Source: an uncultured Gemmatimonadales bacterium (GTDB taxonomy: Bacteria; Gemmatimonadota; Gemmatimonadetes; Gemmatimonadales; GWC2-71-9). Taken from it: a DNA stretch of 64,000 bases. The stretch's first letter is position 1. Each line of letters starts with the position of its first letter. Positions 1 through 58,692 of this stretch are shown here, piece by piece. The stretch lies in contig CAWCVB010000002.1 in the NCBI GenBank assembly GCA_963798915.1, positions 256,001-320,000 on the forward strand, given 5' to 3'. The position numbers and the translations under genes were made by a program. The notes beneath the pieces are model-generated. The model did not search any database and had not been told where the DNA came from. It was given only the letters and a program-made list of their open reading frames with translations.

Positions 1-2752
1 AGAAGTCATACTTGCCGTTCAGCATCAGCACCGGAATGTGGATGTGCGGCAGGTAGTTGATCGGGTCGACCTCCGGTCTCGGCCGCTCCATGGTGAGGCC
101 GGCGACATACAGGACCGCCGCCTTGACCCGCGGTTCGACCGCCGGAATGATCCCGCCCATGTTGGCGCCCCAGCTGTAGCCGAAGTAGGCAAACCGGGTG
201 CTGTCCATGTCTGGCCGGCTGCCGAGGTAGTCGAGGGTCCGCCGGAAGTCCTTCCCCCACATGATGACGTGATCCCGCCAGAAGATGGACTTGTCGGGGA
301 TGTCGCTCGTGAGGCTGTCGGACCGTTCGTAGGTGCTCCTGTAGATCGGCAGCACGAACGCACGTCCGCTCTTCACCACGAAGCTTGGCGTCATGTCGCG
401 CCGCGCGGCGCTGGTGCGGGTGTTGATCGCGCCGGAGCCGGGGAAGAACACGATGGGCTGGTACGGTGGCGTGCCGCTCCTGGGGAGGAAGACCCATGCT
501 TGCATCCGCTCTCCGCCGTACGCGGCGTTGAAGCTCACGAATTGGGCAATCCACTCGTCACTGCTCGAGTCCACGCGCTCGACCCGGGGCTGGAGCGGGA
601 GCGGATCGTAATCGAACTGGTGGCGGTAGCCCTCGACCACCGCATCCGGGACCGACGCGACCTTCGTGTAATCGGTAAACGACCGCACCAGCGGTCGCCG
701 CGCGAGCGCGAGATTGCTGTCCGCGGAGTCGTATCGCGCGAGCCGGATGCCGTTGATCGCCGAGCGATCCATCGGCGGCTGCGCATAGGCGTCGACGAAC
801 GCGTAGGTGGGGTCGCTCCAACCGCCTCCCTCGATGTAGCGCTCGCCGCTGGCCGCCTCCTCGTTGTAGCACCACTCGCGCACATTGCCCGCCATGTCGG
901 AGGCACCGACGAAGCTCACGGCGCGCGGCGTCCCGACGCGCCACGGCCCGGTGCCCTGCAGGTTGCTCAGCGGCACGATGGCGGACGAGAGCCAGATGCC
1001 CGCGGCGCGGGCCCAATGGTACACGGTGGGAAGCGACTTCCCCTTCCACTTGGCATACGCGGCGGCCTCGTACCAGCTCACGCCGCCGACCGGCATGTCC
1101 GCCTGTCCGGACGGATAGTCCCCGCCAACCCACGTCGAGGGTCCCGGGCGTCCCGTCTGGTCGACCAGGCGGGCCATCGCCTGCTGCCAGGTGAGTGTGC
1201 GGTTGCCCTCCCTGAACGGAAAGTCCCACCAGGTGCTGTCGCGATACCCGCCTGCCTCCACGAACGCCTTGTACTGGCGATTGGTCGTCTCGTATCGATC
1301 GATCTTCCAGTCGCGGAGCGAGAGCTCGGGTGAGCCTTCCGTGCCGACGAGAAAGGTGTTGTACCGGGGCCCGCCGGCGACGGCGATCATCGCCGAATCC
1401 GGATCGGCGACGGTCTGAAGCATCAGCGGATAGGCGTGGTAAAGGCCGGTCGTGTACAAGGTCCGGTACCCCGGCTCCTCGAAACGATAGAGGCCGGTCT
1501 GGAACGGGAGTTCCGTCGAATCGACCGGTGTCGTCCCGATGTAGTGCCAGATGCTGGTGTCCCTGAGAGATGCCCGGTACACCATGGCACCGGCCGGGCG
1601 GGTAATGATCGTGGGCCGGCGACCGTGACTCAACTGGGTGAATCGTTTCGCAAGAATCGTGTCGCGAGGCGCGATCGCCTTGGCACGGAGGCCCACGTAC
1701 CAGGCGCTGTCCATCTGGCCGTCGTCGATCATCCGCCCCATCTCGGGGATCGCCGTCTCGCTCACCCAGGCGTGACGCTGCATCTTCCGGACGCCCAGGA
1801 GCGCCACGGCAGCCACCCCGGCCACGGCGATGACCGCCAGCGCGATCTTCCGCCGCCGAGCCGCACGGCTGACACCCGGGACCATCGCGGTCCCGCCGGG
1901 TGTCACCAGCGCATCGAAGGCGGCGAGCAGCTCGTCCGCATTCTGGTACCGGCGGTCGGGATCCTTCGTCAGGCACCGCATCACGATGGCCGCGATGGCT
2001 GGCGGAACGGAGTCCGACAGTGGAGCGGGGGGCGTGAGGACGTGCGCCGTCATGACTGCCTGCGGCGTGCCCGTGAACGGTGGTGCACCGGAGAGGAGCT
2101 CGTACGCCATGGCGCCCAGGCTGTAGATATCGGCGCGGGCGTCGATCGATGGATCGGCCGCGGCCTGTTCCGGCGCCATGTATGCCGGTGTACCCACCGA
2201 GATGCCGATCTCGGTGAGGGTCGCTGAAGCGCTGCCGGACGCGTCGCTGTGGCCGGCCGCGAGCGCCTTGGCCACGCCGAAGTCCATCAACAGTGCATGC
2301 CCCTCGGCGAGCATGACGTTGTCGGGCTTGATGTCGCGATGGACCACACCATGGCGGTGGGCGTGCGCCAGGCCGTCGGTGACCTCCCGCAGCAGGCGCG
2401 TGGCCCCGGCCGGCGACATCGCGCCGTCGCGCGCGAGCCGGTCGCGCAGCGATTCGCCGCGCACGAACGGCATCACGTAATAGAGAAGGCCGTCGGCATC
2501 GCCCGAGTCCAGCAGCGGAAGGATGTGCGGGGACTGCAGGTGGGCGGCAATCCGGATCTCGCGCAGGAACCGCTCGGCGCCCAGCACGGCGGCCAGTTCC
2601 GGTTTGAGCACCTTGATCGCCACCTGGCGGCCGTGCTTCAGGTCCTCCGCCAGATACACCGTGGCCATGCCGCCCTGACCCAGCTCCCGCTCGATCGTGT
2701 AGCGGTCGGCGAGGGCGGCCCGGAGCGTGTCGAGGCTCATGATGCCGCTCAT
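1..2752 (-). CDS. K1: Ser/Thr kinase - TM - FGE/sulfatase-modifying-factor-like domain - alpha/beta serine hydrolase fusion (runs off the left edge)
   Basis: Translated by hand; absent from the ORF track because no stop lies in the window. Starts MSGIMSLDTLRAALADRYTIERELGQGGMATVY; has VAIK, HRDIKPDN, DFG, GTPAYMAPEQ. FGE-like motifs VSWYEAAAYAKWKGKSLPT and DMAGNVREW; hydrolase elbow GYSWG and LMLNGKYD. ATG overlaps the K2 stop (ATGA); alternative ATG at 2740. Confidence 0.9.
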   Translation of the reverse strand, partial: MSGIMSLDTLRAALADRYTIERELGQGGMATVYLAEDLKHGRQVAIKVLKPELAAVLGAERFLREIRIAAHLQSPHILPLLDSGDADGLLYYVMPFVRGESLRDRLARDGAMSPAGATRLLREVTDGLAHAHRHGVVHRDIKPDNVMLAEGHALLMDFGVAKALAAGHSDASGSASATLTEIGISVGTPAYMAPEQAAADPSIDARADIYSLGAMAYELLSGAPPFTGTPQAVMTAHVLTPPAPLSDSVPPAIAAIVMRCLTKDPDRRYQNADELLAAFDALVTPGGTAMVPGVSRAARRRKIALAVIAVAGVAAVALLGVRKMQRHAWVSETAIPEMGRMIDDGQMDSAWYVGLRAKAIAPRDTILAKRFTQLSHGRRPTIITRPAGAMVYRASLRDTSIWHYIGTTPVDSTELPFQTGLYRFEEPGYRTLYTTGLYHAYPLMLQTVADPDSAMIAVAGGPRYNTFLVGTEGSPELSLRDWKIDRYETTNRQYKAFVEAGGYRDSTWWDFPFREGNRTLTWQQAMARLVDQTGRPGPSTWVGGDYPSGQADMPVGGVSWYEAAAYAKWKGKSLPTVYHWARAAGIWLSSAIVPLSNLQGTGPWRVGTPRAVSFVGASDMAGNVREWCYNEEAASGERYIEGGGWSDPTYAFVDAYAQPPMDRSAINGIRLARYDSADSNLALARRPLVRSFTDYTKVASVPDAVVEGYRHQFDYDPLPLQPRVERVDSSSDEWIAQFVSFNAAYGGERMQAWVFLPRSGTPPYQPIVFFPGSGAINTRTSAARRDMTPSFVVKSGRAFVLPIYRSTYERSDSLTSDIPDKSIFWRDHVIMWGKDFRRTLDYLGSRPDMDSTRFAYFGYSWGANMGGIIPAVEPRVKAAVLYVAGLTMERPRPEVDPINYLPHIHIPVLMLNGKYDF

Positions 2753-5392
2753 CGCAGACTGTCCACGGTGTAGAGCAGCGATGTGTAGACCAGCTGGTCG
2801 TACGCGTACACCTGCGGATCGTCGGCCAGGGTCGGCCAGAACATGCCGCGCACCCCGCCGAGATCGCGGGAGGCGGCAGTGAACAGCGGGCCACGCTCAC
2901 CGGTCAGGGGGTCGATGCGGTCGAATTGCGGGGGCGCGACCGACCCGGAATTGGCCCATACCCAGACCTCCCGTCCATCCGGGCTCCAGCGCACCAGATA
3001 GTCTCCGGGACGGACGCCGAGCGCCCGGCGTGGCGCCCCTCCCCCCAGCGGATAGAGCGCCACACTGTCGCCGACCTGGGCCAGCACACTGCGGCCGTCC
3101 GGCGAGACGATCCCCTGCGACGTTCCGAGCGGCGTGACCGGGGTGAGGATTCCCCGCGGCAGCGAGTCCACGTAACAACGCCCGGCCTGCCCCGACTCCG
3201 TGCCGCAGAAGAACGCGATGGTGTCGCTCCCGGCGAGGCGAACGTCACCGGCGGACGCGTCGAATGCCTGCAACTGTCCGGCATCGATGCGCCGCGCCGT
3301 GCCCGGCCCCGTCGGGTAGAGCATGAGCCTGGGGGGCGTCGTGATCACCCCGGCCAGAACGAGCCCGCCGTCCGGGGACACCGCCAGCGGCGTTCCCTCG
3401 CCGAGGCGGCCCGGCGGCGAGCCGTTCGTGCCCCGGCGCAGCACCGAATAGTGGGAACCTCCCATGCCGCTCATGTCGCTGAACATGAGATACCGTCCGT
3501 CCCGGCTGAGGACCGGCCGGGCCGAAAGGTTACGCAGCCCGAGGTTCGTCTCCTCGGTGGCGCCCGGCCCCCGCCCGACGACGCGGTACATTTGCCGGTC
3601 ATCGGTAAGCAGCACCCGGCCCTGCGGGGAGACGTCCTGTACCGTCAGGCCGCCGGTGCCGGAGAGGGCCCAGCGGTCCTGCCCCGACCGGGCGAGCTCA
3701 CGCAGCGCGTAGCCGGCAACGCCGGCACTTGCGTCGCCCGCGGCCGAGTAGAGGATGGTCTTCCCGTCCGGCCGCCACGCGATCCCTTCGATGCTGGGGT
3801 AGTCTCCCGACCGTACCAGCTGTTGCCCCGCACGGTCGGCGATGACGGCATACCCGCGGTCGTCGAACCTGGCGGGGTGCTGGAGATACGCGATCGCGTC
3901 TCCCGAGGGCGAGATCCTGGGGTCGGACAGATAGCCCTGGGACCGGACCAGGACCGTCCCCACCGGGTACTCCAGCAGGTCGGTGCCGCTGCTGTCCCGA
4001 ATCACCGCCATGCTCTTCCCGTCCGGGCCCCAGTCGGCCTCGCGCACGCCGGTCGTCACCTCGTGGGGCGCCTCGCCCCCAAGCGACAGGGTCGCCAGCG
4101 TGCCGGTAAAGAGCCGGTGCCGTCCGACGTAGCGTGCATGCGTGAGGACGGCGAGCTCACCGGCCTGTGAGACGTTCAGCAGGTGTGTCGAATCCGGTCC
4201 GAACGGGGCGGGGTCCGGATGATCGGGCCGGATGACGTACAGGTGCGACTCCGTTCCAACGTCGGGCGTGCCGCTGAACACCATCGTCTTCCCATCGGGC
4301 ATGAAGCGCGCATTGAAGATCGTACGCGCATCGAACGTCTGGGCCGTGAACCACGGCGCCGAGGCCGGTGCCCCATGGCGGGGCAGGGCGACGGCCAGCA
4401 GTACCGCTCCCGCGGCCACCGCGACCGTGCCCCACCACCAGGGACTGCGCAGCAAGGGCCGGAAGCCCGGCGCGGTGGGCGACAACGCGCCACCCGCGCC
4501 CGGGCGCGCGGGCCTGAAGTGGGGATCCGCCAGCGCCGCGGCGAACTCCTTCGCCGTTGCAAACCGGTCGGCCGGCACCTTCTCCAGCGCGTGGTTCACC
4601 GCCGCCGCCACATTGGGCGGAACCGACCGGCGCGCCTTGGTCACCGGGGCGGGGTCCCCGGTCACGATCTTCATGATGATCTGCTGCACCGTGGCCCCAG
4701 TGTGTGGCGGGTCCCCGGTCAGCATCTCGTACAGCACCGCGCCGAGCGAGTAGATGTCCGAGCGGCTGGTGAGCTCTTTCTCGGCCGTCGCCTGTTCGGG
4801 CGACATGTAGTGCGGTGTGCCCAGGGACAGGCCCGTCTCGGTCATCCGGCCGCCCGCCGCGGCACTCACCGCCAGGGCGATCCCGAAATCCGCCACCATC
4901 GGCCGGCCGTCGTGCAGCAGGATGTTCTCGGGTTTGATGTCGCGGTGAATCACCCCGTGCCGGTGGGCATAATCCAGCGCATCCGCCACCTCCGTGGTGA
5001 TCCGGACTGCTTCGTCCACACTGAGCTGGGTCTCCCGGTTGAGCTTGTCCCGCAGGGTCTCGCCCTCGACGTAGGGCATGACGTAGTACAGGAGGTCTAC
5101 GGTCGACTGTCGACCGTCGACCGTCGACCGTTGACTGTCGACCCTGGCTATTCCCGAATCAAACAGCGGGAGAATGTGCGGATGCGAGAGTGCCGCGGTG
5201 GTCTTGATCTCGACCACGAAGCGCTCGGCCCCGATTACGGCGGCGAGCTCGGGCTTGAGGACCTTGATGCGCGACCTTGCGATCGTGCTTGAGGTCCTCG
5301 GCAAGATAGACCGTGGCCATGCCGCCCTGCCCGAGCTCACGCTCGATGCGGTAGCGGTCCGCGAGCGATGCGCGGAGCAACTCGAGGCTCAT
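2749..5392 (-). CDS. K2: Ser/Thr kinase - TM - TolB/PD40-like beta-propeller, with a +1 frameshift near 5268
   Basis: True N-terminus MSLELLRASLADRYRIERELGQGGMATVY...KHDRKVA is at the end of ORF 5159..5767; the rest is in ORF 2749..5340. The junction reads GCG-CATC-AAG where K7 has GCG-CTC-AAG. SPDG/SPSG-type repeats follow a hydrophobic helix. Confidence 0.88.
5094..5142. repeat. Tandem heptamer array, about 7 x (GTCGACN), inside the K2 kinase domain
   Basis: ggtctac ggtcgac tgtcgac cgtcgac cgtcgac cgttgac tgtcgac; encodes VDSQRSTVDGRQSTVD. Confidence 0.9.
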
Positions 5393-8052
5393 TGGCGGAG
5401 CTCCGGATAGTCGGCCAGCCAGTTGTCGATCCGGATCACCTGCGGGATGCCGCCGGTCCCGACCATCACGAAACGCTGTCCGTCGGCATCCACGTCGTAG
5501 TTCTTGTGGAACGCGGTGCTGATGTAGTACGGTGTGGTCTGGAACAGCGGCACCGGAGCCCCGACCTCGAGGGTTGGGGTGGTCCGGATGCGCACCGACA
5601 TCAGCATCTCCTCCGGCCCCACGAAGAAGAGTTCGCCACTCCGACGCGACCAGCGCGGCTGCCGTCCGCCTCGTGCCGAGACCTGAATCCGGCGGTCCTC
5701 GACATTGGGGAACGGCCGGATGTACACCTCGAAGATTCCCGACTCGCTCGAGGCATAGGCCAACCACTTCCCATCCGGCGAGAACTCCGGCGTGACATCG
5801 GATGAGGGAGAGGTGACGACCGGGATTGCCGGCTCGTCACTGCCCATCAGCTTGGCGTAGATGTCCGACCCGTTCTCCGCCTCCACCGAGGTTCGGAAGA
5901 CCATCCATCGGCCATCGGGCGACCAGATCGCATCGGCGACCCCCCGGGGCTCATCCACCGTCGGGGTCGGATCACCGACTCCGTCGTCGCGCACCTGCAG
6001 CACCGAGTCCTTGCCGCCACTGCGGTAGAACAGCAGCGAGCGCCCGTTCGGGTGCCATGCCGGCCTGAGGTTGTTCCGTCCACCGATCGGGCGGACCACC
6101 TGCGTGGCGGGCCCCTCGTCCAACTGCTTTACCTCGAGCGCATGCCCCACCGACATGGCGAGCCGGCGACCGTCGGGAGAAAGGGCCGGGGACTCGGCAA
6201 CGGGCGTCCGCCAGGCGGGGTCGATTTGCCGGGCAACACCGCTCCGATCGACCCAGTAGGCCCTCCGCGCGGCGCCGCCGTCGCGCCAGTAAAGCATCGA
6301 GCCGCTCGCCGAGAAGGCGGCATCGGCAATGGTGACGCCATTGTTCCGCAAGTCGGAGGCGAGCAACACCGGATTGCCGCGGAGCTCGAGCCGCTCGAGA
6401 TCGAAGGCCACCCCGTACACCTGTCGGCCGTCGGTTGAGAAGATGAATGCGCCGGTGGGGAGGATGGCGACGGGGATGCCCTCAGTCAGGTGTCGCGGCT
6501 CGGAGCTCCCCGCGGGGAGTGCGAGCAACTCGAGCGGGCCGGAGCCCCGCTGCCGGGTGAACACCACCCCTCGACCGCCCGGTACAGCCACTGGCCACCG
6601 GTCGGCGGTGGCCCGGCTGGCCTCGGGGCTCGTCAGGGTGTCGATGCGCCCGCCTGCACCCGGTATCCGGAAAATGCCCCCCAGCCTGGAGTAGTAGATG
6701 TAGCCATCATCACCCCAGGAGGCGCCGATGAACACCGAGTCGGCCACCAGTGTGCGGGGTGTCCCGCCCGAGAGTGGAATGGTCTGGAGCGCACCCTGGG
6801 AGAACACCGATCGCACGTAGGTCAGCTGGGAGCCGTCCGGCGAGAACTCGGGCCACCGGGCATCGGTTGTGCCCGGAATCTCGACGGGGTCGAGCTGGTT
6901 GAGCCGCTTGAGCAGCAGGTGGGTCGTCGATCCGCTGCCCGCTGCACCGGCAGTGGGGAACACGACATCGCGGCCATCAGGGGAGATGGCGAAGGTGCGT
7001 CCGACGATCGAGGCCGGTGCGAGGGAGTCCGGGAAGCTCAGGTACTCCTTGTGACTCTCGTCGGTTGTCGATGACGCAACACCGCCAGCGATCACCCCCC
7101 AGCCCGCGAGGACCGTCACCGCCGCCAGTGCCGCGATGCTGCGCCAATCGCGGAGCCAGCGCCCCGTGGTGGCTGGCCGGTCCCGCACGATCCCGCTGGT
7201 GCGGCGCGTCCCCGTGCCGTTCCCCGAGAGTGCCTCGGCGAACTCCCTGGCCGAGGCGAAGCGATCGGCCGGCAGGCGCTGGATCGCGGTGTGCACCGCA
7301 TCCTCGACTCCCGGCGGCACCGTCTTCCGGTAGGTGGTGACCGGCTCGGGCGTCGCGGTCATCACCTTGGCGATGATTGACTGCGCCGTGGGACCCGAGA
7401 ACGGCGGCTCGCCGGCGAGCATCTCGTAGAGCACGCAGCCGAGGGCATAGATGTCGGTGCGGGCGTCGAGGTCCCGCTCGCCCATGGCTTGCTCGGGGCT
7501 CATGTAGTGCGGCGTGCCGAGCGACATCCCTGTTTCGGTCATGCGGGTGCCGCCATCGGAACGGCTCACGGCGAGCGCGATGCCAAAGTCCGCCACCAGC
7601 GCCTGCCCGTCATGCAGCAGGATGTTCTCGGGCTTGATGTCGCGGTGGATCACCCCGTGTCGGTGGGCGTAGTCCAGGGCGCTCGCCACTTCGCTCGCGA
7701 TGCGGACGGCCTCGGGAATGGGGAGTTGCTTCTCGCGGGTCAGCCGGTCACGCAGCGATTCGCCTTCCACGAACGGCATCACGTAGTAGGCGGTCCCGTC
7801 GAGATCACCCGAGTCGATGAGCCCCAGGATGTGCGGGTGCTGCAGGTTGGCGATGGTCTTGATCTCGCGCAGGAATCGCTCGGCGCCGATCACGGCCGAG
7901 AGCTCGGGGCGCAGCACCTTGATGGCGACATCTCGCTCGTGCCTGAGGTCACGAGCGAGATAGACCGTGGCCATGCCGCCAGCGCCCAGTTCGCGCACGA
8001 TGGTGTAGCGGTCGTTCAGTGCGGCGGCGAGGCGCTCAGGCATCGTGCTCAC
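5389..8052 (-). CDS. K3: Ser/Thr kinase - TM - TolB/PD40-like beta-propeller
   Basis: 887-aa ORF with GAGGMATV, VAIK, HRDIKPEN, DFG, GTPHYMSPEQ; TM SIAALAAVTVLAGWGVIA; repeated SPDG motifs. GTG start overlaps the K4 stop (alternative ATG at 8043). Confidence 0.95.
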   Translation of the reverse strand: MSTMPERLAAALNDRYTIVRELGAGGMATVYLARDLRHERDVAIKVLRPELSAVIGAERFLREIKTIANLQHPHILGLIDSGDLDGTAYYVMPFVEGESLRDRLTREKQLPIPEAVRIASEVASALDYAHRHGVIHRDIKPENILLHDGQALVADFGIALAVSRSDGGTRMTETGMSLGTPHYMSPEQAMGERDLDARTDIYALGCVLYEMLAGEPPFSGPTAQSIIAKVMTATPEPVTTYRKTVPPGVEDAVHTAIQRLPADRFASAREFAEALSGNGTGTRRTSGIVRDRPATTGRWLRDWRSIAALAAVTVLAGWGVIAGGVASSTTDESHKEYLSFPDSLAPASIVGRTFAISPDGRDVVFPTAGAAGSGSTTHLLLKRLNQLDPVEIPGTTDARWPEFSPDGSQLTYVRSVFSQGALQTIPLSGGTPRTLVADSVFIGASWGDDGYIYYSRLGGIFRIPGAGGRIDTLTSPEASRATADRWPVAVPGGRGVVFTRQRGSGPLELLALPAGSSEPRHLTEGIPVAILPTGAFIFSTDGRQVYGVAFDLERLELRGNPVLLASDLRNNGVTIADAAFSASGSMLYWRDGGAARRAYWVDRSGVARQIDPAWRTPVAESPALSPDGRRLAMSVGHALEVKQLDEGPATQVVRPIGGRNNLRPAWHPNGRSLLFYRSGGKDSVLQVRDDGVGDPTPTVDEPRGVADAIWSPDGRWMVFRTSVEAENGSDIYAKLMGSDEPAIPVVTSPSSDVTPEFSPDGKWLAYASSESGIFEVYIRPFPNVEDRRIQVSARGGRQPRWSRRSGELFFVGPEEMLMSVRIRTTPTLEVGAPVPLFQTTPYYISTAFHKNYDVDADGQRFVMVGTGGIPQVIRIDNWLADYPELRQ

Positions 8053-37376: not shown

Positions 37377-38257
37377 GAACGGCCTCTCTCGTCCTGCTCA
37401 TGATCCTGGTCACGGCTGCACCGGCCAGCGCGCAAATCCGCGCGAGCGAGCGCGCACGAGTCCGGCAGGTGGTGGACGGCACAACGATCACGATTGATTA
37501 CGCGCGCCCGCGGGTGCGCGGCCGGGCACCCATTTTTGGCGGGGCAGTGTGGTGGGGAGAGGTATGGACCCCCGGCGCCAACATGGCGACAACCCTGGAA
37601 ACCGATCACGATATCCTGCTCGACAGCCGGCCGGTGCCGAAAGGCAAGTATTCGGTATGGATGGTGGTGGACAGCGGGCCGCAGTGGACGATGGTGCTCG
37701 ACACTGTGTGGGAGCAGTACCATGAGGACCGGCCCCCTGCGCGGGGCGGACAGATCCGGTGGGCGGTGACGCCGGAAGTCGGCCCCGCGACAGAGGTGCT
37801 CACCTGGAGTTTTCCCGAGATCACCTCGACCGGTGGCATGATCCGCATGCAGTGGGCCGACCGCGCCGTGTCGCTCCCGTTCACCGTGCCGCCGAGTCAT
37901 CCGCTGACCACCGATCGTACCGAGGCCGCTCCGCTGGTGGGCCGCTATCGCATGACCTGGATCGAAGACGGCGGCAGCGCGGGCTCCGACAGTGGGCGGC
38001 AGATCGTGGAGATTACCTACGAGAATGGCGCGCTGCTCGCGCGCTGGGCGCCGAAGCTCTGGGGCCCGGATGACCAGACCTGGCTCATTCGCCTGGCACG
38101 GAACTGGTTCAGCCCGGGGTTCCGGCGGGATGGGAAGCTGGTGGACGTGTTCACAGAATGGGTGCTCGAGTTCGATGTCGTGGGGACCGAGGCGCGCGGA
38201 TTCGAGATCCGTGGGGAGCGCGACCTGCTGTGGGCCAAGGCCTCGCGATTGAGATAG
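37373..38257 (+). CDS. DUF2911-family secreted protein with C-terminal extension
   Basis: Signal peptide; AS..A.V.Q...GTTITIDYARP.VRGR..IFGG.V.WG.VWTPGAN.AT; ATGA-coupled to the upstream gene. Confidence 0.85.
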   Translation: MRTASLVLLMILVTAAPASAQIRASERARVRQVVDGTTITIDYARPRVRGRAPIFGGAVWWGEVWTPGANMATTLETDHDILLDSRPVPKGKYSVWMVVDSGPQWTMVLDTVWEQYHEDRPPARGGQIRWAVTPEVGPATEVLTWSFPEITSTGGMIRMQWADRAVSLPFTVPPSHPLTTDRTEAAPLVGRYRMTWIEDGGSAGSDSGRQIVEITYENGALLARWAPKLWGPDDQTWLIRLARNWFSPGFRRDGKLVDVFTEWVLEFDVVGTEARGFEIRGERDLLWAKASRLR

Positions 38258-45237: not shown

Positions 45238-45521
45238 GCCCCCCGCCCTTCACGCGGCTGAACGCCGCGGCTCGGCAAGATGTCGCGGTGCGACAGTCGC
45301 GTCGCCGGTATCTCGGCGTGGCGAAGCCACGCTCTGCCGAGCAGCGAATTGATTCGCGGGGCCGTCCGAGTGCCAAGACCACCTTCGCCAACCAATCGCG
45401 GAGCGATCGTCTGCCCCTTCGCGGCGCTCAGGACAGGCTCAGGCGTGACGACAGTCGCGGCCCGCTCGATGCGGTAGCGGTCGGCCAAGGCGGCCGTGAG
45501 GCGATCAACACTCATGGTCAT
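45234..45521 (-). pseudogene. Kinase-start remnant followed by REP-like palindromes (95-aa ORF)
   Basis: MTMSVDRLTAALADRYRIER, then non-kinase sequence made of hairpins (cccttcgcggcgctcaggacaggctc; gcgtggcgaagccacgc; cgcggctgaacgccgcggctcggca); TGA overlaps the K10 ATG. Confidence 0.85.
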
Positions 45522-50640: not shown

Positions 50641-53324
50641 CTACTGCCTTACCCGGGCGAGCTTGGCGGCCGTTTCCGTCCACCACCCGAGCACCACGTC
50701 AACCCTCGCCCGCGGCGGGGCCTTGATGAACAGGAAGTGCAGGCCGTCCGGAGAGACGTCAAAGGCATCCGCTTGGGAGTCACGGAAATACCGGCTGGCG
50801 TCGAACAGCCGCTGCGACGACCCGGCCGGGTTCGGCTTGCGCTCGTCCATTGGGGTGGCCATGACTATGGACTGGCCGTCCAGATAGAAAAGCTGCCGGC
50901 CATCGCGCGCCCAGATCGGGCTCGTGCCGCCGGCGTTCGACACCTGGATCCGCGCACCGCCGTCCGGGAACGGCGTGAGATACACCTCGTCGCGTCCCGA
51001 CGCGTCCGAGGTGTACGCCAGCCAGTGCCCGTCCGGTGAAACGGCGGGATTGCGTTCGTCGGCACGGGTCGTGACCAATGGACGCGCGCTGGTATCGCCT
51101 TTGGCCGCCGCGAAGATGTCGCGCCGCGTGCGACCATCGTCATAGCCCTCGCGGAACGCGAAGTCGTGGCCGGCGGCCGGCCAACTGACCTCTTGCACGT
51201 GCCTCGCGCGCGCCAGGACCAGGCGGAGCGTGTCGCTGCCGTCAACGGGGACCGAGAATAGCTGGCGCAAGCCGCTGCTGCTCCCATGGTCACTGGAGAA
51301 GAACAGGCGGCGTCCGTCCGGCGTCCACGCCGGGCGGAACGAGTAATCGCCGGTGGAGGTGAGTCGTGAGAACGTGCGCCGCCGCAGGTCGTACACCCAG
51401 ATAGTGGACGTCGTACCGGACGGGTCTCCGACCGCAGCGGCGATCTGCTCGCCGCTGGGCGAGAGCGCCACGCCGAGATAGGGTCGGGCGAGCGTCGAGT
51501 CCACGATGGTCTCGACGCCCTCGCGGGACACCCATGTGAGCAGCGAGACCGCGCTGGTCGCCGGCTGGTAGAATAATGTCCCGTCGCGGCCCACCGCCGC
51601 GGCCATGCCTCCGTCCGCGGTGTACACCCCCGTCAGCACGGGGACGGACGTGCCGCTCACGCGATGGCCATCGAACGGTTGGGCCTGCACCGATCCATCA
51701 GCGGTTGCGTAGAGCAGCCAGCCATCGCGAACTGCCAGCGGCAGCAGGCCGGCCACGAGCTTGGTCCGCGTGCCAGCCCGCAGGTCGAACGCCACGATCC
51801 AGCCGTTCGCGAGGGAGCCGACCCCACGGGTCGCCGCCAGCAGTGTTCGGCCATCGTCGAGCATGAGTGGATACTGCAGACCGCCGCTCCCCGTAGCCGA
51901 CACGCTGTCGGCGGAAATGGTCGCGACGTCCTCGGTCGGTCCGCCGGTGGCCGGAATGCGCGCGATCGCAGTGCCGGCGTCACCGTGGCAATAATAGATG
52001 TAGCCGTCCGTTGCCCACGACACGCCGCATTTGCCGGACGCGTCCCTCGTCAACAGCGCCGGTGCGCGTCCGTCCACGCCAATGGTGTGGAACTCCTTGG
52101 ACCGTGTGGTGTACGCGATGCTTCTGCCGTCAGGTGAAAAGGTCACGTCACCTGCCGAGGCCGTTCCCGGCAGCAATTCCGAGGTGTCGCGGTCCATCCA
52201 ACGCACCCGGATACCCGGGCTGGCCCCGCCAAAGTCGGAATAAGCCAATGCCCGGCCGTCAGGCGACACAGCCGGCTGCGTGGTCGATCCCACCACCGTG
52301 GATGCACCCGACAGGGAAAAGCGCACGACGCGCAGCGCCGGCGAGGGCCGATGGAGCGCGTATCCCACCGCGCCCGCCGCCACCAGCATCGCGGCCACGG
52401 CGGCGTACCGCCACCACCGCGCGCCGCGCTGGCCGGTCGACGCCGCGGAGAACGGGCTGGCCGTGGTTCCGGCGAACGACGGGTTCTCGAGCGCGTCGGC
52501 GAACGCCTTCGCGCTGTCGAAGCGATCCGCCGGCAGCTTCTCCAGCGCCTTCGCGACGCGCCGCCGCCACGTTCGGCGGCACCGACTTGCGGAGCTCGGT
52601 CACCGGCGCGCGCGTGCTCGGTCATGATCTTCATGATGATCTGCTGCGCCGAGCCGCCCGACGTGCGGCGGCTGGCCCGGCGAGCATCTCGTACAGCACG
52701 CTCGCCGAGCGAGTAGAGTCGCTGCGGCCGTGATCTCCTTCTCGGCCGTGGCCTGCTCGGGGCTCATGTAGTGCGGCGTGCCGAGCGAGCAGCCCGGTCT
52801 CGGTCATGCGGCCGCCCGCCGCGGCGCTCACCGCGAGCGCGATGCCGAAGTCGGCCACCATCGGCCGGCCGTCGTGCAGCAGGATGTTCTCCGGCTTGAT
52901 GTCGCGGTGGATCACGCCCGTGCCGGTGCGCGTAGTCGCAGCGCGTCGGCCACCTCGGTCGTGATGCCGCACCGCCTCATCGATGCCGAGCTGCGGTCTC
53001 GCGGTCGAGCTTGCTCGCGGAGCGTCTCGCCGTCGATGAACGGCATCACGTAGTAGAGGAAGCCCGTCGCGCCGTCGCCGCTGAATCGAAGAGCGGCAGG
53101 ATGTGCGGATGCTGCAGCGCCGCGGTGGTCTTGATCTCCAGCACGAACCGCTCGGCGCCGAGCACGGCGGCGAGCTCGGGCTTAGCACCTTGAGCGCGAC
53201 CTGGCGATCGTGCTTCAGGTCTCGGCGAGATAGACGGTGGCCATGCCGCCTGGCCGAGCTCGCGCTCGATGCGGTAGCGGTCGGCGAGGGCCGAGACGAG
53301 CGGGCGCGCGCGGGGGGCCGTCAC
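50641..53324 (-). pseudogene. K13: Ser/Thr kinase - TM - beta-propeller; kinase half broken by many indels (pseudogene or poor assembly consensus)
   Basis: Kinase motifs are scattered over ORFs 53046..53360, 52631..53188, 52259..52603 and 52143..52634; the 585-aa TM+propeller ORF 50641..52398 is intact; GTG start overlaps the K14 stop. Confidence 0.8.
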
Positions 53325-55987
53325 TGGTGCGCCTTCGCCGCCGCGAGCAGCGCCCGCCACTGGTCGACGTAGACGACGCGCGCCCTCGCCGACCCGGCGT
53401 CGCGCTTCTCCAGCATCAGGAAGTCGCCTCCGGGCAGCACGTCGTACGCGACGGCGCCGAGGCCCTGTTCGAAGCGGTCCATGGAGAAGAGGGCGCGCCG
53501 GGAGCGCACGGTGAACCCGGCGCCGGTCGTCACCTCGGAGGCCATGAGGCTGTCGCCGCCGATGTAGAACAGCTCGCGGCCGTCGCGGGACCAGCGGGGC
53601 GTCCTTCCACCGCCGGCAGAGACCTGCCAGAGGTCGGCGCGCGAGGGGTCGGTGGACCGGACGTACATTTCGCCCTCGGATGCGTACGCCAGCCAGCGCC
53701 CGTCGGGCGAGGGACGGGGGGAGTGTACGCGCGCCGGCAAGACCGACGATCAGGCCCGGTCGGCGGCGGTGGGCTGGTCGAGGGAGTGGGCGTAGATGGC
53801 GCTCCGGCCGGGCTGGAATCTCAGGTAATAGAGCGTGCGGCCGTCCGCCGAGGGTGCCGGGCTCCGACGTTCATCGCCGTATCACGCACGACGCTGCGCG
53901 GAGGCGATGCGCTGCCCACCGTCGCCTGGAAGATCTCGCCCACCTGGGCATCGTTGGCGGCGAAGAACAGAGTTGCGCCCGTCGGCGCTGAAGGCCGGAG
54001 CGCTCGTCACGGTCGCGGGGACCGTGATCCGGCTGGCGGCGCCGCTGCGCAGATCGCGCACCAGGATGTCCCAGGTTCCAAGCTCGACCGAGGCTGCTGC
54101 GCGAGTGCCATCGCGCGAGGCCGCGACGTCGCGGGCGTACCCCACCCACGTGGAGTCGAGGAGCGCCACGGCACCGTCGCGGCGGACGCGCGCGAAGCTC
54201 AGCCGGGGCGTGTGCGAGCCGCCCGTCGCGAACACGAGCTGCCCGCTCCGCGCGACGGCGATCTGCGGGAACGCGTCGGTGCCGATCATGGTCCCCACCG
54301 TAAGGGGCACGGGCGCGCCCGTGATGCGGCGCTTCGCCGCGTCGAAGGGCACGGCCACCAGCGTGCTGTCCGGCCGCACGACCAGGAGATATCCCGGATT
54401 CAGGTAGCGGGCCCAGAAGCCGGGCGTGAGCAGTCGGTGGCGTCCCGTGGCGGGGTCGGACACGGCGATCCGGAAACGCGAGTTGTCGCCGTAGTTGCGC
54501 GGTATCACCACGAACAGGACAGCCTTTCCGCCCGGGAGCGGGCTGCCGCCCGTGTGGAAGACCTCGCCGGCTGCGGCATCCAGGCGGGTGACCTGCTCCC
54601 ACGCGACACCGCGCACGGGCACCCGCAGGATTCCGGCGTGGCCGCTGACGAGCAGGTGGTCGTTATCCGCCCACTCGATGACCGAAAAGCTGGGCAGCGT
54701 ATCGGTCACCGTCGTGACGGGTCCGCCGGTGGGCGACACCAGGCGCAGCGCATGACCCTCGAGAAACGCCACCCGGCGCCCATCCGGCGAGACCGCCGGA
54801 TAGCTCGCGCTGTCGGTGCCAGGCAGCGGCCGCGGATCCAGCGCGTCCGCGTCCCGGACCCAGAGCCCGGTTCCTGCCGAGGCGCGCGCTACGTAGACCA
54901 GCCTCGATCCGTCCGGCGAGAGCGCGAAGGAGCCCTCGGGAAGTGCGCTGTCGGGAAACGAGAGCGTCGCGAGCCAGGGGTGGTCGCCGGCCGCCGCCGA
55001 CAGCGGATTGGTACGCCCCACGCCGCCGGCTCCCCGCCTCCAGCCCCACGCCGCCGCGGCCAGGGCAATCAGAGCGATCACGGCCGAGGCGCTCGTCGCC
55101 CGGTGCCGCCGCCAACCATCCGGACGCCCTGGACCGGTAGCGCGGGCCCGGAAGGAATGGGTCGTCAGCGCACCGGCGAACTCCGCCGCGGCGCCGAAGC
55201 GGTCGGCCGGCAGCTTCTCCAGCGCGGTATGGACCGCCGCTTCTACGTACGCCGGCACGCTGCGGCGCCGCGTCGCCAGCGGCTTCGGCTTCTCCGTGAT
55301 CACCTGCGCCACGATCGCCTGGGCGGTGGGGCCGGTGAATGGCGGCTCGCCGGCGAGCATCTCGTAGGTGACCGCGCCGAGCGCATAGATGTCGGAGCGC
55401 GGCCCGATCCCCCGCTCGCCCATGGCCTGCTCGGGGCTCATGTACTGCGGCGTGCCGAGCGAGAGGCCGGTCTGGGTCATGCGCTGCCCACCGGCCTGCT
55501 GCACGGCGAGCGCTATCCCGAAGTCCGCTACCAGGGCATGCCCGTTCTGGAGGAGGATGTTCTCGGGCTTCACGTCGCGGTGCACCACGCCCCGCTCATG
55601 TGCGTACTGCAGTGCGTCCGCGACTTCGGTGGCGATGCGCACCGCGTCGCTCACGGGAAGCTGCTGCTCGCGCTCGAGGCGGGCGCGGAGCGTCTCCCCC
55701 TCTACCAACGGCATCACGTAGTAGAGGAAACCATCGGCCGAGCCGCTGTCGAACAGCGGCAGGATGTGCGGGTGCTGCAGCGACGCGGTCAGCTCGATCT
55801 CCCTGAGGAAACGCTCCGGCCCCAACATCGCCGAGAGCTCCGGGTGGAGGACCTTGATCGCGACACGCCGGCGGTGCTTGAGGTCCTGGGCCAGGTATAC
55901 CGTGGCCATCCCGCCCTGGCCCAACTCGCGCTCGATGCGGTAGCGGTCGGCCAGGGCCGCGGCGAGTCGTTCCGGGGCGTCGCTCAT
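53321..55987 (-). CDS. K14: Ser/Thr kinase - TM - beta-propeller; C-terminal part frameshifted at about 53.7-54.0 kb
   Basis: ORF 53882..55987 has an intact kinase and most of the propeller; the last blades (SPDGRWLAY...WQVS.GGG..PRWSRDGRELFY) are in ORF 53321..53740. Confidence 0.85.
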
Positions 55988-58692
55988 TGCTTCACCTTTG
56001 CCGTGAGGTCGGCAAAGAAGTGCTCGACCAGCACCAGGTCCTGGCCCCGCTCGCGGTCGGGCCGACGGATCATCACAAAGTGGCTGTCGTCCGGCGCGAC
56101 GTCATACTGCGGGCGGTTGACCGCGTTGGCATACGCCGTCACCGGGAAGAGCGCGCGGGCACTGCCGGGGGAGAATCCGGCGCCGGGCGCCACCGGAAGG
56201 CTCATCAAGCGGCCGTGGCTCCGAAAGAAGAGCTCGCGTCCGTTGTGGGCCCATCGGGGCTCGCTGCCGCCACCCTGCGAGATGGGATACTTCACCTGCA
56301 TGTCGGGAAATGAGGCGACATAGACCTCCGAGGAGCCCGAGTGATCCGAGGTGAAGGCCAGCCATCGGCTGTCGGGCGAGAGGGCGATCTGGGTGTTGAA
56401 GCTGCTGTCGGAGTAGATCATGTGGAGGGTAGTGTCGCCCCTCAGGCGCCGAGCGTGAATGACGCCGAACGAGGCCTGATCATCGGCCCGCACTACCAGC
56501 CATTCCCCATCGCGACTGAATTCCGCCTCCCAGATGCCGGCGTCGATGTGGAGCAGGAGCCGGGGGGGCGCGCTGCCATCGAGCGGGGCCTGGTAGACTT
56601 CGTTTGCGCCCGCGTTCGACGAGAGGCCGTTGGTGGTCGTGAAGGCAAAGCTGCGCCCATCCGCAGACCAGCTCGGGCGCCAGCTTCCGAGGTCACCACG
56701 GGAAATCCGCAGGCGGGACCCATCTTGGCGGCGGACCCAGAGCTGGGTCACGCCCTCGCGCACGCTGACGGCGAGGGCCTTGCCATCGGGGGAGAGCGCG
56801 GGATACTCGAAGTTTCCCGTCCAGTCCGGCGCGAAGGGTTGCTCGGTGCCGTCGCGCGAGACCCGGACGAGGGTCGACTTCCGGAGATCCTGGGTACCAA
56901 ACGACAGGAGCGCCGTGCCCGATGCCGACAGGGCCAGGCCATTCGGCGCCACGCCATCGGCGATCGAGATCGCGCCCGAGGTAACGGTCATGCGCTTCAG
57001 ATCGAACCCAACCGCATAGAGGCCGCCATCCCGACTGGTGTAGAGCAGGTGTCCGGTGGGGGAGTACCAGCCGCCCGTGGCATTGGGCACCAGGAGCCGG
57101 GTCGTGTCGCGCGCAATATCAAAGACGTAGACCGCCGAGCCGCTGGCGCAGTTGCCTGGGCAACCGGTGAACAGCAAGCCGCGGCTTCCCGGAAGCGCGG
57201 TCAGCACCGATGGATCATCACGGTGCCCAACAGTCGCGGGGCGCAATGTCGTGACCGGTCCCCCATCGCCGGGGACACGCGCCAGGGCGTTGGCGACATC
57301 AATGAAGGCGACGGTCCCGTCGTCGAGCCAGGCGCCGACCGGATAGGTCTCGTTCGCCGAACTGGCGAGCTGAATCGATCCCCCACCAGAGACACGAACC
57401 TTCCGGAGGATGCCGCCATGGACGAAGTATCCGATCCAGTTGCCATCGGGCGAGAAGAAGGGTCCCGACGCACCCTCCGTTCCGTCGATCGCCGTGGGCC
57501 GGGCTTCGTTGCGTCTCTTGAGGAACAGCCGTGTCTCGTCGCCGATCGAATCCGAGAAGACGATATTTTCCCCATCGGGTGAGATGGCGACCCGGGTCTC
57601 GGTCCGCACTGAACTGGGGAGCAGGAAGTCAGGATACGGGGTATTCCAGAGCAACACCCGCTGGCGGCTGGGCAGCATCACGGCGCCCGGACGCAACCAG
57701 CCCCAGAGGGCTGCGGCGCCGAGCAGGAGGGCCAGCACTGGAAACACATACTGCATGCGCCGACTGGTTGGCGGCGGCGGCATCGGCCGCGGCATCGTCC
57801 GGCGGCTGGTGGTGCCGCTATCGCTGAGCGCTGCGGCGAACTCCGCCGCTGAGGAATAGCGGTCGGCCGGCAGCTTCTCGAGCGCCGTAAACACCGCCGC
57901 CTCAACCCCGGGCGGCACGCTCTTGCGCTGGAGCGTGAGCGGGCGCGGCTCCTCCGTCATCACCCGCGCAATGATCGCCTGGGCGGTGGGACCATTGAAT
58001 GGCGGCTCACCCACCAGCATCTCGTAGGTGATGCAGCCCAGGGCATACACGTCGCTGCGGGCGGTGATTTCCCGCTCACCCATGGCCTGCTCAGGGCTCA
58101 TGTAGTGCGGGGTGCCGAGACTCATGCCGGTCTCGGTCATCCGGGTACCGGCGCCACTGCTGGCGGCGAGCGCAATGCCAAAATCGGCCACCAGTGCGCT
58201 GCCGTCATGCAGCAGGATATTCTCGGGCTTGATGTCGCGATGGATCACACTGTGCCGATGGGCGTAATCCAGCGCGCTCGCCACTTCGGTGGCGATCCGC
58301 ACCGCGTCACCGATCGGCAACTGTTTCTCCCGGGTGATCCGCTCGCGCAGCGATTCGCCCTCGACGTACGGCATCACGTAGTATAGGAAGTCGACGGTCG
58401 ACGGTCGACTGTCGACTGTTGACCGTGGACCCTCGACCGCTGCCACACCCGAATCGATCAGCGCCAGGATATGCGGGTGCTGCAGGTTGGCGGTGGTCCG
58501 GATCTCGGCCAGAAACCGCTCGGCGCCGATGACCGCGGCCAGCTCGGGTCGCAGGACCTTGATGGCCACCTTGCGGTGGTGCTTCAGGTCTTCGGCGAGA
58601 TAGACCGTCGCCATGCCGCCCGCGCCCAACTCGCGCTCGATGGCGTACCGGTTGGCGAGGGCGCTGGAAAGGCGGCTGAGCGCGTCAGTCAT
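55984..58692 (-). CDS. K15: Ser/Thr kinase - TM - TolB/PD40-like beta-propeller
   Basis: Starts MTDALSRLSSALANRY at 58692; intact kinase motifs, TM and SPDG repeats. Confidence 0.95.
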   Translation of the reverse strand: MTDALSRLSSALANRYAIERELGAGGMATVYLAEDLKHHRKVAIKVLRPELAAVIGAERFLAEIRTTANLQHPHILALIDSGVAAVEGPRSTVDSRPSTVDFLYYVMPYVEGESLRERITREKQLPIGDAVRIATEVASALDYAHRHSVIHRDIKPENILLHDGSALVADFGIALAASSGAGTRMTETGMSLGTPHYMSPEQAMGEREITARSDVYALGCITYEMLVGEPPFNGPTAQAIIARVMTEEPRPLTLQRKSVPPGVEAAVFTALEKLPADRYSSAAEFAAALSDSGTTSRRTMPRPMPPPPTSRRMQYVFPVLALLLGAAALWGWLRPGAVMLPSRQRVLLWNTPYPDFLLPSSVRTETRVAISPDGENIVFSDSIGDETRLFLKRRNEARPTAIDGTEGASGPFFSPDGNWIGYFVHGGILRKVRVSGGGSIQLASSANETYPVGAWLDDGTVAFIDVANALARVPGDGGPVTTLRPATVGHRDDPSVLTALPGSRGLLFTGCPGNCASGSAVYVFDIARDTTRLLVPNATGGWYSPTGHLLYTSRDGGLYAVGFDLKRMTVTSGAISIADGVAPNGLALSASGTALLSFGTQDLRKSTLVRVSRDGTEQPFAPDWTGNFEYPALSPDGKALAVSVREGVTQLWVRRQDGSRLRISRGDLGSWRPSWSADGRSFAFTTTNGLSSNAGANEVYQAPLDGSAPPRLLLHIDAGIWEAEFSRDGEWLVVRADDQASFGVIHARRLRGDTTLHMIYSDSSFNTQIALSPDSRWLAFTSDHSGSSEVYVASFPDMQVKYPISQGGGSEPRWAHNGRELFFRSHGRLMSLPVAPGAGFSPGSARALFPVTAYANAVNRPQYDVAPDDSHFVMIRRPDRERGQDLVLVEHFFADLTAKVKQ
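58389..58437. repeat. Tandem heptamer array (7 units) inside the K15 kinase domain
   Basis: agtcgac ggtcgac ggtcgac tgtcgac tgttgac cgtggac cctcgac; encodes VEGPRSTVDSRPSTVD. Confidence 0.9.

Follow-up and report, generated by a model that had tools for sequence, protein, structure and literature searches.

A tandem array of receptor-type Hanks kinases in a Gemmatimonadales bacterium, probably a birth-and-death family with gene conversion

The window, that is, the whole stretch of 64,000 nt (64 kb) of DNA analysed here, comes from a Gemmatimonadales bacterium (soil, phylum Gemmatimonadota) and holds 15 loci for Hanks-type Ser/Thr kinases, 14 on the minus and one on the plus strand, as located by tblastn with the K3 kinase domain. 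The Pfam family Pkinase (PF00069) is matched in every gene for which the preliminary description had claimed a kinase, with 129.8–178 bits at 14 loci and 32.9 bits in the K13 fragment (gathering cut-off, 31.7), and both searches bear out the picture of 14 co-oriented kinase genes in three runs plus K8. The kinases had also been called closely similar, which is only moderately true: amino-acid identity to K3 is 50–77% for 14 loci, K13 being degraded, and DNA identity between paralogs in the kinase region is mostly 55–81%. The longest exact repeat among the paralogs measures 155 nt and is shared by K2 and K7; in the other 90 of the 91 pairs, exact runs reach at most 49 nt. The neighbours of the array are metabolic and transport genes.

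The first run lies on the minus strand and begins with K5 (10667..13315; Pkinase 3e-49, PD40 2.1e-25), which has a transmembrane (TM) helix and is separated by a 286-nt gap from a divergent oxidoreductase operon. It continues with K4 (8049..10670; Pkinase 6.2e-45), with a TM helix and a divergent double β-propeller, and K3 (5389..8052; Pkinase 9.7e-51, PD40 2.7e-20, TM helix at about residue 306). K2 (2749..5392) follows, its start ATG at 5392 overlapping the K3 stop (ATGA); it combines kinase, TM helix, and a K4-type double propeller, with 61% identity to K4 over 840 aa, and is disrupted by one extra nucleotide at 5268 (frame change at 5270/5268 by tblastn), a frameshift that could be an assembly error. 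K1 (2..2752; Pkinase 1.8e-49, FGE-sulfatase 3.3e-22, TM helix at about residue 303) is truncated at its C-terminus by the left end of the window.

In the second run, also on the minus strand, K7 (23954..26695) and K6 (18425..21109), both made up of kinase, TM helix, and PD40 propeller, are separated by an amino-acid permease gene (22596-23957; AA_permease_2 1.3e-46) and a C92 (YaeF/YiiX-like) peptidase-like gene (about 21106-22681; Peptidase_C92 1.3e-08). In the latter, third-position G+C by frame and two-frame translations place an apparent frame change near 21400. The stop of this gene is overlapped by the K6 start ATG at 21109, and the closest database ortholog of K6 (894 aa, 90% sensor identity) is without the C92 part. 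The single plus-strand kinase gene, K8 (34029-36740; Pkinase 1.2e-43 and TPR families), encodes an N-terminal extension of about 100 aa followed by kinase, TM helix, and TPR region, and it is overlapped by an ECF sigma factor gene on the same strand (33230-34042; Sigma70_ECF 2.6e-51, TIGR02999 4.6e-60).

The third run, again on the minus strand, begins with K15 (55984..58692; Pkinase 6.4e-47, PD40 1.1e-20, TM helix), whose start at 58692 is placed by alignment to residue 1 of K10, and ends with K9 (39698..42361; Pkinase 7.6e-49, PD40 2.4e-28, TM helix). Three of its genes are disrupted, which brings the total with K2 to four of the 14 on the minus strand, and these broken units carry random lesions. 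K14 (53321..55987), with kinase, TM helix, and PD40 propeller, has in-frame TGA codons at 53882-53884 and 53750-53752. K13 (50641..53324) is a pseudogene, its sensor ORF still matching PD40 (9.9e-27) and its degraded kinase spread over three frames in alignments that hold two to four stops each. K12 (47873..50570; kinase, TM helix, TolB_N, and TPR) has its reading frame shifted where 10 nt are duplicated in tandem near 48790, and is thereby split into ORFs in different frames at 48675-50570 and 47873-48790. K11 (45525..47888; Pkinase 1.3e-47, TolB_N, TPR families) and K10 (42358..45237; Pkinase 4e-49, TPR matches in the C-terminal region) each have a TM helix and flank a 95-codon ORF (45234..45521), whose TGA overlaps the K10 ATG. 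Codons 1–20 of this stub correspond to the kinase N-terminus and the remainder is unrelated; its tblastn matches are limited to kinase residues 1–20, and an additional copy of repeat family D20 lies within it at 45449-45500, in agreement with the DNA alignment. The stub may be what a deletion has left of a former cassette, with the ATGA junction retained.

Stop/start overlaps had been claimed at 11 junctions between neighbouring kinase genes, and all 11 tetranucleotides are present in the sequence, although only seven of them (2749, 5389, 8049, 10667, 42358, 53321, and 55984) join a kinase stop to a kinase start by 4 nt. The remaining four are of other kinds: 21106 is the stop of the C92-peptidase-like gene at the K6 start, 23954 is the K7 stop at the permease start, 45234 is the stop of the stub (K11 stops at 45525), and at 47873 the overlap amounts to 4 nt only with a GTG at 47876 and to 16 nt with the first start, ATG 47888. 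ATGA, GTGA, and TTGA junctions also occur in the arrays of relatives. Since 4-nt overlaps are found at most junctions of the co-directional runs, the genes are probably co-transcribed and translationally coupled, an operon structure deduced from the overlaps; promoter and terminator scans of the array gave scores no better than those of shuffled sequences.

The architecture of constant kinase and variable sensor in coupled genes that had been proposed is upheld. The catalytic motifs (Gly-rich loop, VAIK, HRD, DFG, APE) are found in 14 of 14 aligned kinases (K13 left out), K8 reading HCD in place of HRD, and all 14 genes that were translated (again leaving K13 out) show by hydropathy a single hydrophobic helix C-terminal to the kinase, as had been noted; it peaks between residues 277 and 318, and at residue 393 in K8. 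Two extra hydropathy peaks, at residue 69 of K8 and residue 144 of K9, fall within or ahead of the kinase. In all likelihood these are single-pass receptor-type kinases composed of a cytoplasmic N-terminal kinase, a juxtamembrane linker, the helix, and a C-terminal domain. Because Arg/Lys-rich segments precede the membrane helix and the C-terminal domains are TolB-like, these domains would be periplasmic and ligand-binding; ligand would then be expected to activate the kinase, and the array to serve in signalling.

The C-terminal modules comprise ten β-propellers, the TPR regions of K10–K12 and of K8, and the FGE-sulfatase-like domain of K1, which belongs to a family that we take to be the one formerly named DUF323. 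PD40 (PF07676) is matched with E values from 1e-9 to 2e-28 in K2, K3, K5, K6, K7, K9, K13, K14, and K15, and only weakly (0.0032) in K4. The AlphaFold2 model of the K4 sensor is all-β (pLDDT 90.4) and in Foldseek it matches the double propellers 2ymu, 1nr0, and LRP6; many of the 1181 K4 homologs carry PD40. The K2/K4 sensor is, according to the model, predicted to be a β-propeller too, so that the three types proposed stand as propeller, TPR, and FGE-sulfatase-like, but not with K2/K4 as a non-propeller type. Identity with TolB proper, of the Tol-Pal system, is rejected (77.1 bits for K3 and 29.1 for K11, against a TIGR02800 cut-off of 343), the likeness being at the level of the domain only. 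The sensor types have orthologs elsewhere at 75–90% identity, and each of them is an old, conserved lineage, not a hypervariable surface. Kinase and sensor are under different constraint, with dN/dS of 0.10–0.25 and 0.31–0.95, respectively.

Relatives of the array were sought through the anchor gene at 15386-17185, which matched 80 loci, mostly in Gemmatimonadota; three of these adjoin co-oriented kinase genes (L001, L025, and L027, with 78–84% anchor identity), five have one kinase match, and 72 have none. As compared with the window, the two closest relatives, L001 and L025, differ in the number and the order of kinase genes, in keeping with the variation that had been anticipated: the best K6 counterpart in L001 (63.5% identity) lies upstream of the anchor, whereas K6 in the window lies downstream, and the K5-like sensor of L001 occupies the third upstream position, not the first. 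L001 also has one frameshifted kinase, and L025 one kinase-only fragment. The dS between kinase paralogs (0.67–0.92) is no lower than that of the species split at the anchor genes (0.46–0.48), and most kinase exchanges are therefore old.

One exchange is recent. K2 carries a gene-conversion tract (5075..5359, minus strand) with its partner in K7 (26373-26656), in which 285 nt differ by three substitutions and one indel and include the 155-nt exact run; its borders are sharp, its flanks diverge steeply, and it extends across 74 polymorphic sites in succession (p = 0.0005 in the global permutation test). It represents one recent conversion event and is the sole globally significant tract within the window, K4/K5 and K7/K9 passing the pairwise comparison only.

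Trees of kinase and sensor halves, built separately, reject clades of each other, with AU p-values that are optimistic since the tested clades were picked after the trees were seen: kinase data reject the sensor clades {K5, L001_a} (p-AU 0.001) and {K15, L025_c} (p 0.037), and sensor data reject the kinase clades {K15, L001_a} (9e-5), {K3, K5, K9} (5e-7), {K5, K9} (about 0), and the seven-member K2/K4/K7 clade (0.0017). Kinase data do not reject the sensor pairs {K6, L001_b} (p 0.40) and {K2, K4} (p 0.24), and sensor data do not reject the kinase clade {L025_d, L027_a} (p 0.26). The sensor tree is a quick tree, a fast search was used for four of the five constraints placed on the sensors, and the sensor topology is weakened by the strong divergence of the sensors, whose dS is about 1 or more and thus saturated. 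Kinase identity reaches 80% or more in 18 pairs, whose sensors are 19–59% identical. Individual proteins are mosaic as well: L001_a is K15-like (92–100%) over residues 121–260 and K5-like from about residues 260–300, and in the database protein P0003 a sensor with 84.5% identity to that of K4 is joined to a kinase only 65.1% identical to that of K4 and 81.6–86.5% identical to the kinases of K15 and L001_a, the switch lying at about residues 255–285. A single clade for the four kinases with K4-type sensors is rejected (AU p 0.0018, delta lnL 101), and in P0003, a relative's protein, the kinase has been cleanly replaced. The trees are thus incongruent and gene order differs between relatives, the opposite of the congruent trees and fixed order that would have spoken against re-pairing. 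The proposal that recombination between kinase-coding regions re-pairs sensors is sustained by the tract, the trees, P0003, the stub with its ATGA junction, and the differing gene order and number among the relatives.

These data point, with good probability, to a lineage-specific tandem expansion of receptor-type Hanks kinases, that is, a birth-and-death family with gene conversion. Genes would break (four here), shrink to a stub (one here), and vary in number and order between relatives; exchange among the conserved 5′ halves that encode the kinases, by homologous recombination or by gene conversion, would homogenise the kinases within the genome and also re-pair kinase modules with those of the sensors, the breakpoints falling where the kinase domain ends. 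The tandem paralogs, pseudogenes, differences in order and copy number between relatives, and statistical signs of exchange (permutation, AU) by which such families are recognised are all found. If plain tandem duplication and divergence had been at work, with a kinase merely more constrained and no recombination, the lower dN/dS of the kinase would be expected, and {K6, L001_b}, {K2, K4}, and {L025_d, L027_a} are indeed compatible with both halves; rate differences, however, leave topology unchanged, while the halves reject each other's clades, the borders of the K2/K7 tract are sharp, and the P0003 and L001_a mosaics change partner at the domain border, all of which contradicts this reading and makes it distinctly improbable. 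At the other extreme stands the self-rearranging receptor library of the preliminary description, in which frequent kinase-domain recombination, on the scale of populations or lifetimes, would adaptively swap, duplicate, and delete sensors. The recent tract with its 155-nt run, the stub with its preserved frame and ATGA junction, the variation among relatives, and the kinase swap at 84.5% sensor identity favour it, but with 55–81% identity and exact runs of at most 49 nt in 90 of 91 pairs the kinase regions are poor substrates for frequent RecA exchange, the dS of kinase paralogs exceeds that of the species split, the sensors have conserved orthologs (75–90%), and every cassette is a full gene with complete kinase and its own start codon, so that no rearrangement is needed to express a sensor. 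The 34 ORFs searched with Pfam included neither a recombinase nor a reverse transcriptase (those at 37247-37900 and 62847-63383 matched no family), and they showed no silent or truncated donor cassettes and no expression site, each unit consisting of kinase, start, and sensor; long near-identical repeats are likewise absent from the cassette borders, only K2/K7 sharing more than 49 nt exactly. As an active mechanism such a library is not borne out by these observations and is improbable. Programmed systems (pilE/pilS-type conversion, shufflons, diversity-generating retroelements) were rejected as models, donors and border repeats being missing and no recombinase occurring among the scanned ORFs. 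Change in the array appears instead to be an evolutionary process, comparable to that of plant receptor-kinase and R-gene clusters, and not a programmed rearrangement device.

Two further readings concern the nature of the genes and of the contig. Anti-phage defence kinases, as single-gene systems of PD-T4-6/Stk2-like type in a defence island, are suggested by PADLOC, whose PD-T4-6 and mad6 models match with E values down to 2.5e-93; these matches, nevertheless, are confined to the generic kinase domain (residues ~10–290), NCBIfam MAD6 reaches 159–186 bits against a cut-off of 460 and PglW is also far below its cut-off, a sensor beyond the membrane helix would point away from cytoplasmic phage components, and the neighbours are metabolic and transport genes, which leaves a defence role very improbable. 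An artefact joining dispersed paralogs into a false tandem array may come to mind, since the sequence seems to stem from a contig of metagenome type (784,222 nt) and several genes are frameshifted. Misassembly is unlikely, indeed scarcely credible, because the paralogs, at 55–81% DNA identity with one shared 155-nt exact repeat, are too divergent for erroneous joining and the independent L001 and L025 assemblies hold similar arrays by the same anchor operon; the precise 4-nt overlaps at the junctions also argue against it.

The expansion is of a known kind. In the families treated in PMC11032199, Myxobacteria and Planctomycetota have membrane-spanning kinases with cytoplasmic Pkinase and periplasmic WD40 or TPR arrays, species-specific clades are ascribed to 'duplication and/or recombination', and some duplicates are adjacent, which points to tandem duplication. 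By comparison with what is reported there, the array differs in host phylum (Gemmatimonadota), in its PD40/TolB-type propellers, and in having 14 co-oriented genes in three coupled runs, and recombination, deduced from clades in those families, is seen directly here in the tract, the AU incongruence, and the kinase replacement. As described in PMC2176072, Trichodesmium has neighbouring paralogous STK genes with DUF323 domains (Tery_0460 to Tery_0463), and cyanobacterial kinase-domain trees depart from the accessory domains, with gain, loss, and domain shuffling; those arrays are smaller, and the passages of that paper drawn on here give no mechanism test or conversion tracts. The earlier view that no such array had been described is thus too strong, tandem STK paralogs and discordant trees being already reported in these two sources (PMC11032199, PMC2176072). 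Bacterial histidine kinases also join a conserved core to shuffled sensors, within-lineage expansion being the main source of new sensors, but in the account of PMC1630713 they form another superfamily with N-terminal sensors and mostly dispersed paralogs, not operon-like tandem runs. PknD of Mycobacterium tuberculosis, as presented in PMC1847690, shares the layout of kinase, single TM helix, and extracytoplasmic β-propeller. It is a single gene, unlike the array, and the NCBIfam PknD model matches here in the kinase only, with 129–163 bits against a cut-off of 839. Its propeller presumably belongs to another repeat family than those of the array.

In plants, clusters of receptor-like kinase and resistance genes consist of tandem paralogs, pseudogenes among them, that undergo gene conversion or unequal crossing-over and vary in their presence between relatives. 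The array shows the same features of turnover, as an analogy between arrays without homology, and differs in its translationally coupled, operon-like runs and in its reversed domain order, with the kinase first and the sensor last. Extensive sets of receptor-type Ser/Thr kinases are characteristic of soil bacteria that lead complex lives, and the way in which input modules recombine with output modules in them has mostly been deduced from trees. The locus offers a compact, checkable case, in which pseudogenes occur together with a recent conversion and the scar of a deletion, and close relatives show one sensor lineage joined to two kinase modules. It therefore indicates that in bacterial tandem arrays ordinary homologous recombination, acting on conserved kinase halves, is able to join sensors to new kinases. 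A very abundant, uncharacterised class of receptors in Gemmatimonadota, that of a kinase with a TolB-like double propeller, comes into view as well. A bolder and rather doubtful extension would make of the array a set of receptors that is still being actively recombined within natural populations, with GTCGACC repeats as slippage-prone on/off switches for single receptors; homologous exchange of kinase 5′ halves would then continually re-pair the output modules (kinases) with the periplasmic input modules (propeller or TPR) and delete or duplicate cassettes, in a bacterial counterpart of the plant receptor-kinase clusters. These heptanucleotide repeats are present in six to seven copies in the kinase β4–β5 loop of K2, K7, and K15.

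The 15 genes K1 to K15 all match the Pfam Pkinase family, giving 15 Hanks-type kinase domains in a window with a G+C content of about 0.68, and a tblastn query with the K3 kinase domain retrieves 14 minus-strand loci and one plus-strand locus, confirming the arrangement first described, of 14 co-oriented kinase genes in three runs plus K8. The cluster is real and striking. Run 1, K5-K4-K3-K2-K1, extends on the minus strand from 13315 down to 2, with K1 running past the left edge; run 2 (26695 down to 18425, minus) consists of K7, an amino-acid permease, a C92-peptidase-like gene and K6; and run 3 (58692 down to 39698, minus) reads K15-K14-K13-K12-K11-stub-K10-K9, the stub being a 95-codon ORF. 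Runs 1 and 2 are separated by a three-gene 2-oxoacid:ferredoxin oxidoreductase-like operon (13602-18240, plus), whose first gene has Fer4_20, Pyr_redox_2 and 4Fe-4S dicluster domains and which is kept at 78-91% identity in relatives, where it was used as synteny anchor. The other, equally ordinary, genes between the runs encode an amidohydrolase, a sortilin/BNR protein, a HAF-repeat protein, DUF2911 and a fucosidase; the sortilin/BNR (Asp-box) repeat protein (1096 aa) and the HAF-repeat protein (521 aa) lie between run 2 and K8, at 28481-33471. In runs 1 and 3, predicted promoter and terminator sites are no more numerous than in shuffled sequences, so that these scans are uninformative on operon structure.

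The Gly-rich loop, the VAIK lysine, HRD, DFG and APE are kept in all 14 protein-aligned kinases, with HCD for HRD in K8, and a single hydrophobic helix, preceded by Arg/Lys-rich residues, directly follows the kinase in 14/14 translated genes, as had been proposed; this pattern would fit a cytoplasmic kinase with its C-terminal domain, the sensor, facing outward. The three kinds of sensor anticipated are indeed found in the Pfam assignments, namely PD40/TolB-like propellers (K3, K5, K6, K7, K9, K13, K14, K15), TPR modules (K10-K12 and K8, with a TolB_N domain also in K11 and K12) and an FGE-sulfatase-like domain (K1), but the sensor type common to K2 and K4, barely recognised by Pfam, is not a type of its own. 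Its database homologs carry PD40, and its AlphaFold2 model (37-row alignment; mean pLDDT 90.4) is all-beta and matches double propellers in Foldseek, such as 2ymu, 1nr0 and LRP6, which rules out a separate, unknown type; the K2/K4 sensor is thus predicted to be a propeller, and propellers make up 10 of the 14 minus-strand sensors. NCBIfam yields generic kinase, TolB and TPR matches only, all under the cut-offs, and no named family.

The kinases, initially called closely similar, share 50-77% amino-acid identity with K3, and their kinase regions 55-81% identity at the DNA level. In all 18 pairs with kinase identity of at least 80%, sensor identity is only 19-59%. Separate trees of the two halves, proposed at the outset, prove incongruent, with several clades mutually rejected. 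The kinase tree (26 rows, including kinases, suffixed _a, _b and so on, from the related loci L001, L025 and L027) contains the clades {K2, K4, K7, L025_a, L025_b, L025_f, L001_c}, {K3, K5, K9}, {K15, L001_a} and {K10, K11}, whereas the tree of 20 propeller sensors, obtained by a quick search only, groups {K2, K4}, {K5, L001_a}, {K15, L025_c} and {K6, L001_b}. With clades named for testing only after the trees were known, and with some constrained searches fast, the kinase data reject {K5, L001_a} (p 0.001) and {K15, L025_c} (p 0.037) but not {K6, L001_b} or {K2, K4}; the sensor data, saturated at synonymous sites, reject {K15, L001_a} (9e-5), {K3, K5, K9} (5e-7), {K5, K9} and the seven-member K2/K4/K7 clade (0.0017), but not {L025_d, L027_a}. 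Individual proteins are mosaic as well. Over residues 121-260 L001_a shares 92-100% identity with K15, and beyond that it is closest to K5. In the database protein P0003 the sensor shares 84.5% identity with that of K4, and the kinase shares 65.1% with the K4 kinase versus 81.6-86.5% with the K15 and L001_a kinases; the change of partner falls at residues ~255-285, and the juxtamembrane segment is K4-like. A single clade for the four kinases with K4-type sensors is rejected by the AU test (p 0.0018) and accepted without P0003. Recombination between conserved kinase halves is well supported as an evolutionary mechanism.

Within the window, a conversion tract joins K2 (5075-5359) and K7 (26373-26656), which differ by three substitutions and one indel over 285 nt, including a 155-nt exact run, with flanks that diverge at once and copies that lie 21 kb apart. 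In a Sawyer-type permutation (570 polymorphic sites, 14 kinases, 2000 permutations) the K2/K7 run of 74 concordant sites reaches a global p of 0.0005; K4/K5 and K7/K9 pass at the pairwise level only. Tandem repeats of GTCGACC, in 6-7 copies, are present in the coding sequence of K2, K7 and K15 (5102-5143, 26400-26441 and 58390-58439), and about four copies of a variant in K4 (10382-10408). Translated, they add 17 residues to the kinase beta4-beta5 loop, an insert absent from all other window kinases; L001_b and L001_c have inserts of other sequence there, and the other 10 kinases of L001, L025 and L027 none. Since K15 belongs to a kinase clade other than that of K2, K4 and K7, conversion may have carried the insert between kinases. 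A slip of one repeat unit would shift the reading frame.

Relatives were sought with the oxidoreductase gene at 15386-17185, for which 80 loci, mostly from Gemmatimonadota, were fetched (best match, 84% identity). Co-oriented kinase genes stand beside this anchor only in L001 (five kinases), L025 (six) and L027 (one), with one kinase match each in five other loci and zero in 72, so that the array is confined to a narrow lineage. Comparison across relatives, as originally suggested, shows that gene order is not conserved between L001 and the window: the best K6 counterpart is upstream of the anchor in L001, K6 itself being downstream, and the L001 sensor closest to K5 sits third upstream rather than first. 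Junctions in relatives are also ATGA, GTGA or TTGA. In L001 (5255-8166) a kinase and its sensor are in different frames, and in L025 (15609-16727) a kinase-only ORF of 373 codons lies between two full genes. Each sensor type is a conserved lineage: for the K4 sensor the database contains relatives at 84, 83 and 81% identity (1181 matches in total), and for the K6 sensor at 90, 76 and 75% (359 matches at E <= 1e-100).

Lesions disrupt four of the 14 minus-strand genes. K2 carries a 1-nt insertion at 5268 and K12 a 10-nt tandem duplication near 48790; K13 has accumulated many stops and frame changes; and K14 contains in-frame TGA codons at 53750-53752 and 53882-53884, which are taken as nonsense mutations, the sequence past both still aligning in the same frame to propeller sensors. 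All 11 of the 4-nt junctions listed in the preliminary description are present, but kinase/kinase overlaps number only seven: the overlap at 47873 depends on the start codon chosen, those at 21106 and 23954 involve a non-kinase partner, and 45234 is the stop of the stub (45234-45521, minus). The stub, whose codons 1-20 correspond to a kinase N-terminus, the rest having no match, still shares its terminal ATGA with the start of K10, and is read as the scar of a deleted cassette, that is, of one kinase-sensor gene.

These observations can be set against the idea of a self-rearranging receptor library. Its core, recombination between kinase halves, is well founded, but among the ORFs scanned with Pfam and NCBIfam there is neither a recombinase or reverse transcriptase nor a silent cassette or expression site. 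This argues against a programmed or rapid library, which is possible but unsupported. As to tempo, the anchor genes of the window and of L001 are separated by a dS of 0.46-0.48, kinase pairs, within or between genomes, by 0.67-0.92, and sensors by about 1 or more; kinase dS exceeding anchor dS, the exchanges are old, the K2/K7 tract excepted. A defence system is rejected, as PADLOC matches are limited to the kinase domain. The locus fits a birth-and-death family whose modules are re-paired from time to time by gene conversion and unequal exchange between kinase halves, and the cluster belongs to an already known kind of expansion. Published accounts describe Planctomycetota membrane STKs with periplasmic WD40/TPR arrays, and also adjacent duplicates (PMC11032199), neighbouring DUF323 STK paralogs in Trichodesmium with kinase trees out of step with accessory domains (PMC2176072), lineage-specific expansion of histidine kinases with domain shuffling (PMC1630713), and an acidobacterium with large families of STK paralogs (PMC3174227). 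Among the papers listed in literature searches, covered for the most part at the level of titles and abstracts, none describes a Gemmatimonadota kinase array or a conversion tract between tandem STK genes.

Two genes deserve separate mention. Upstream of K6, the C92 (YaeF/YiiX-like) peptidase-like gene (21106-22681) is open in the K6 frame as part of a 1418-aa ORF, for which the stored gene call has 1308 aa. A K6-C92 peptidase fusion is countered by third-position G+C by reading frame in the C92-like region, by a second frame there that ends at 21106, and by K6 orthologs of 894 aa without C92, all of which point to two separate genes, the C92-like one having a frame change near 21400. K8 (34029-36740, plus), which has an extension of ~100 residues ahead of the kinase, lies downstream of an ECF sigma factor gene (PF07638, TIGR02999) that overlaps its start by 14 nt, the pair occupying 33230-36740; such sigma factor-kinase pairs form a known class.
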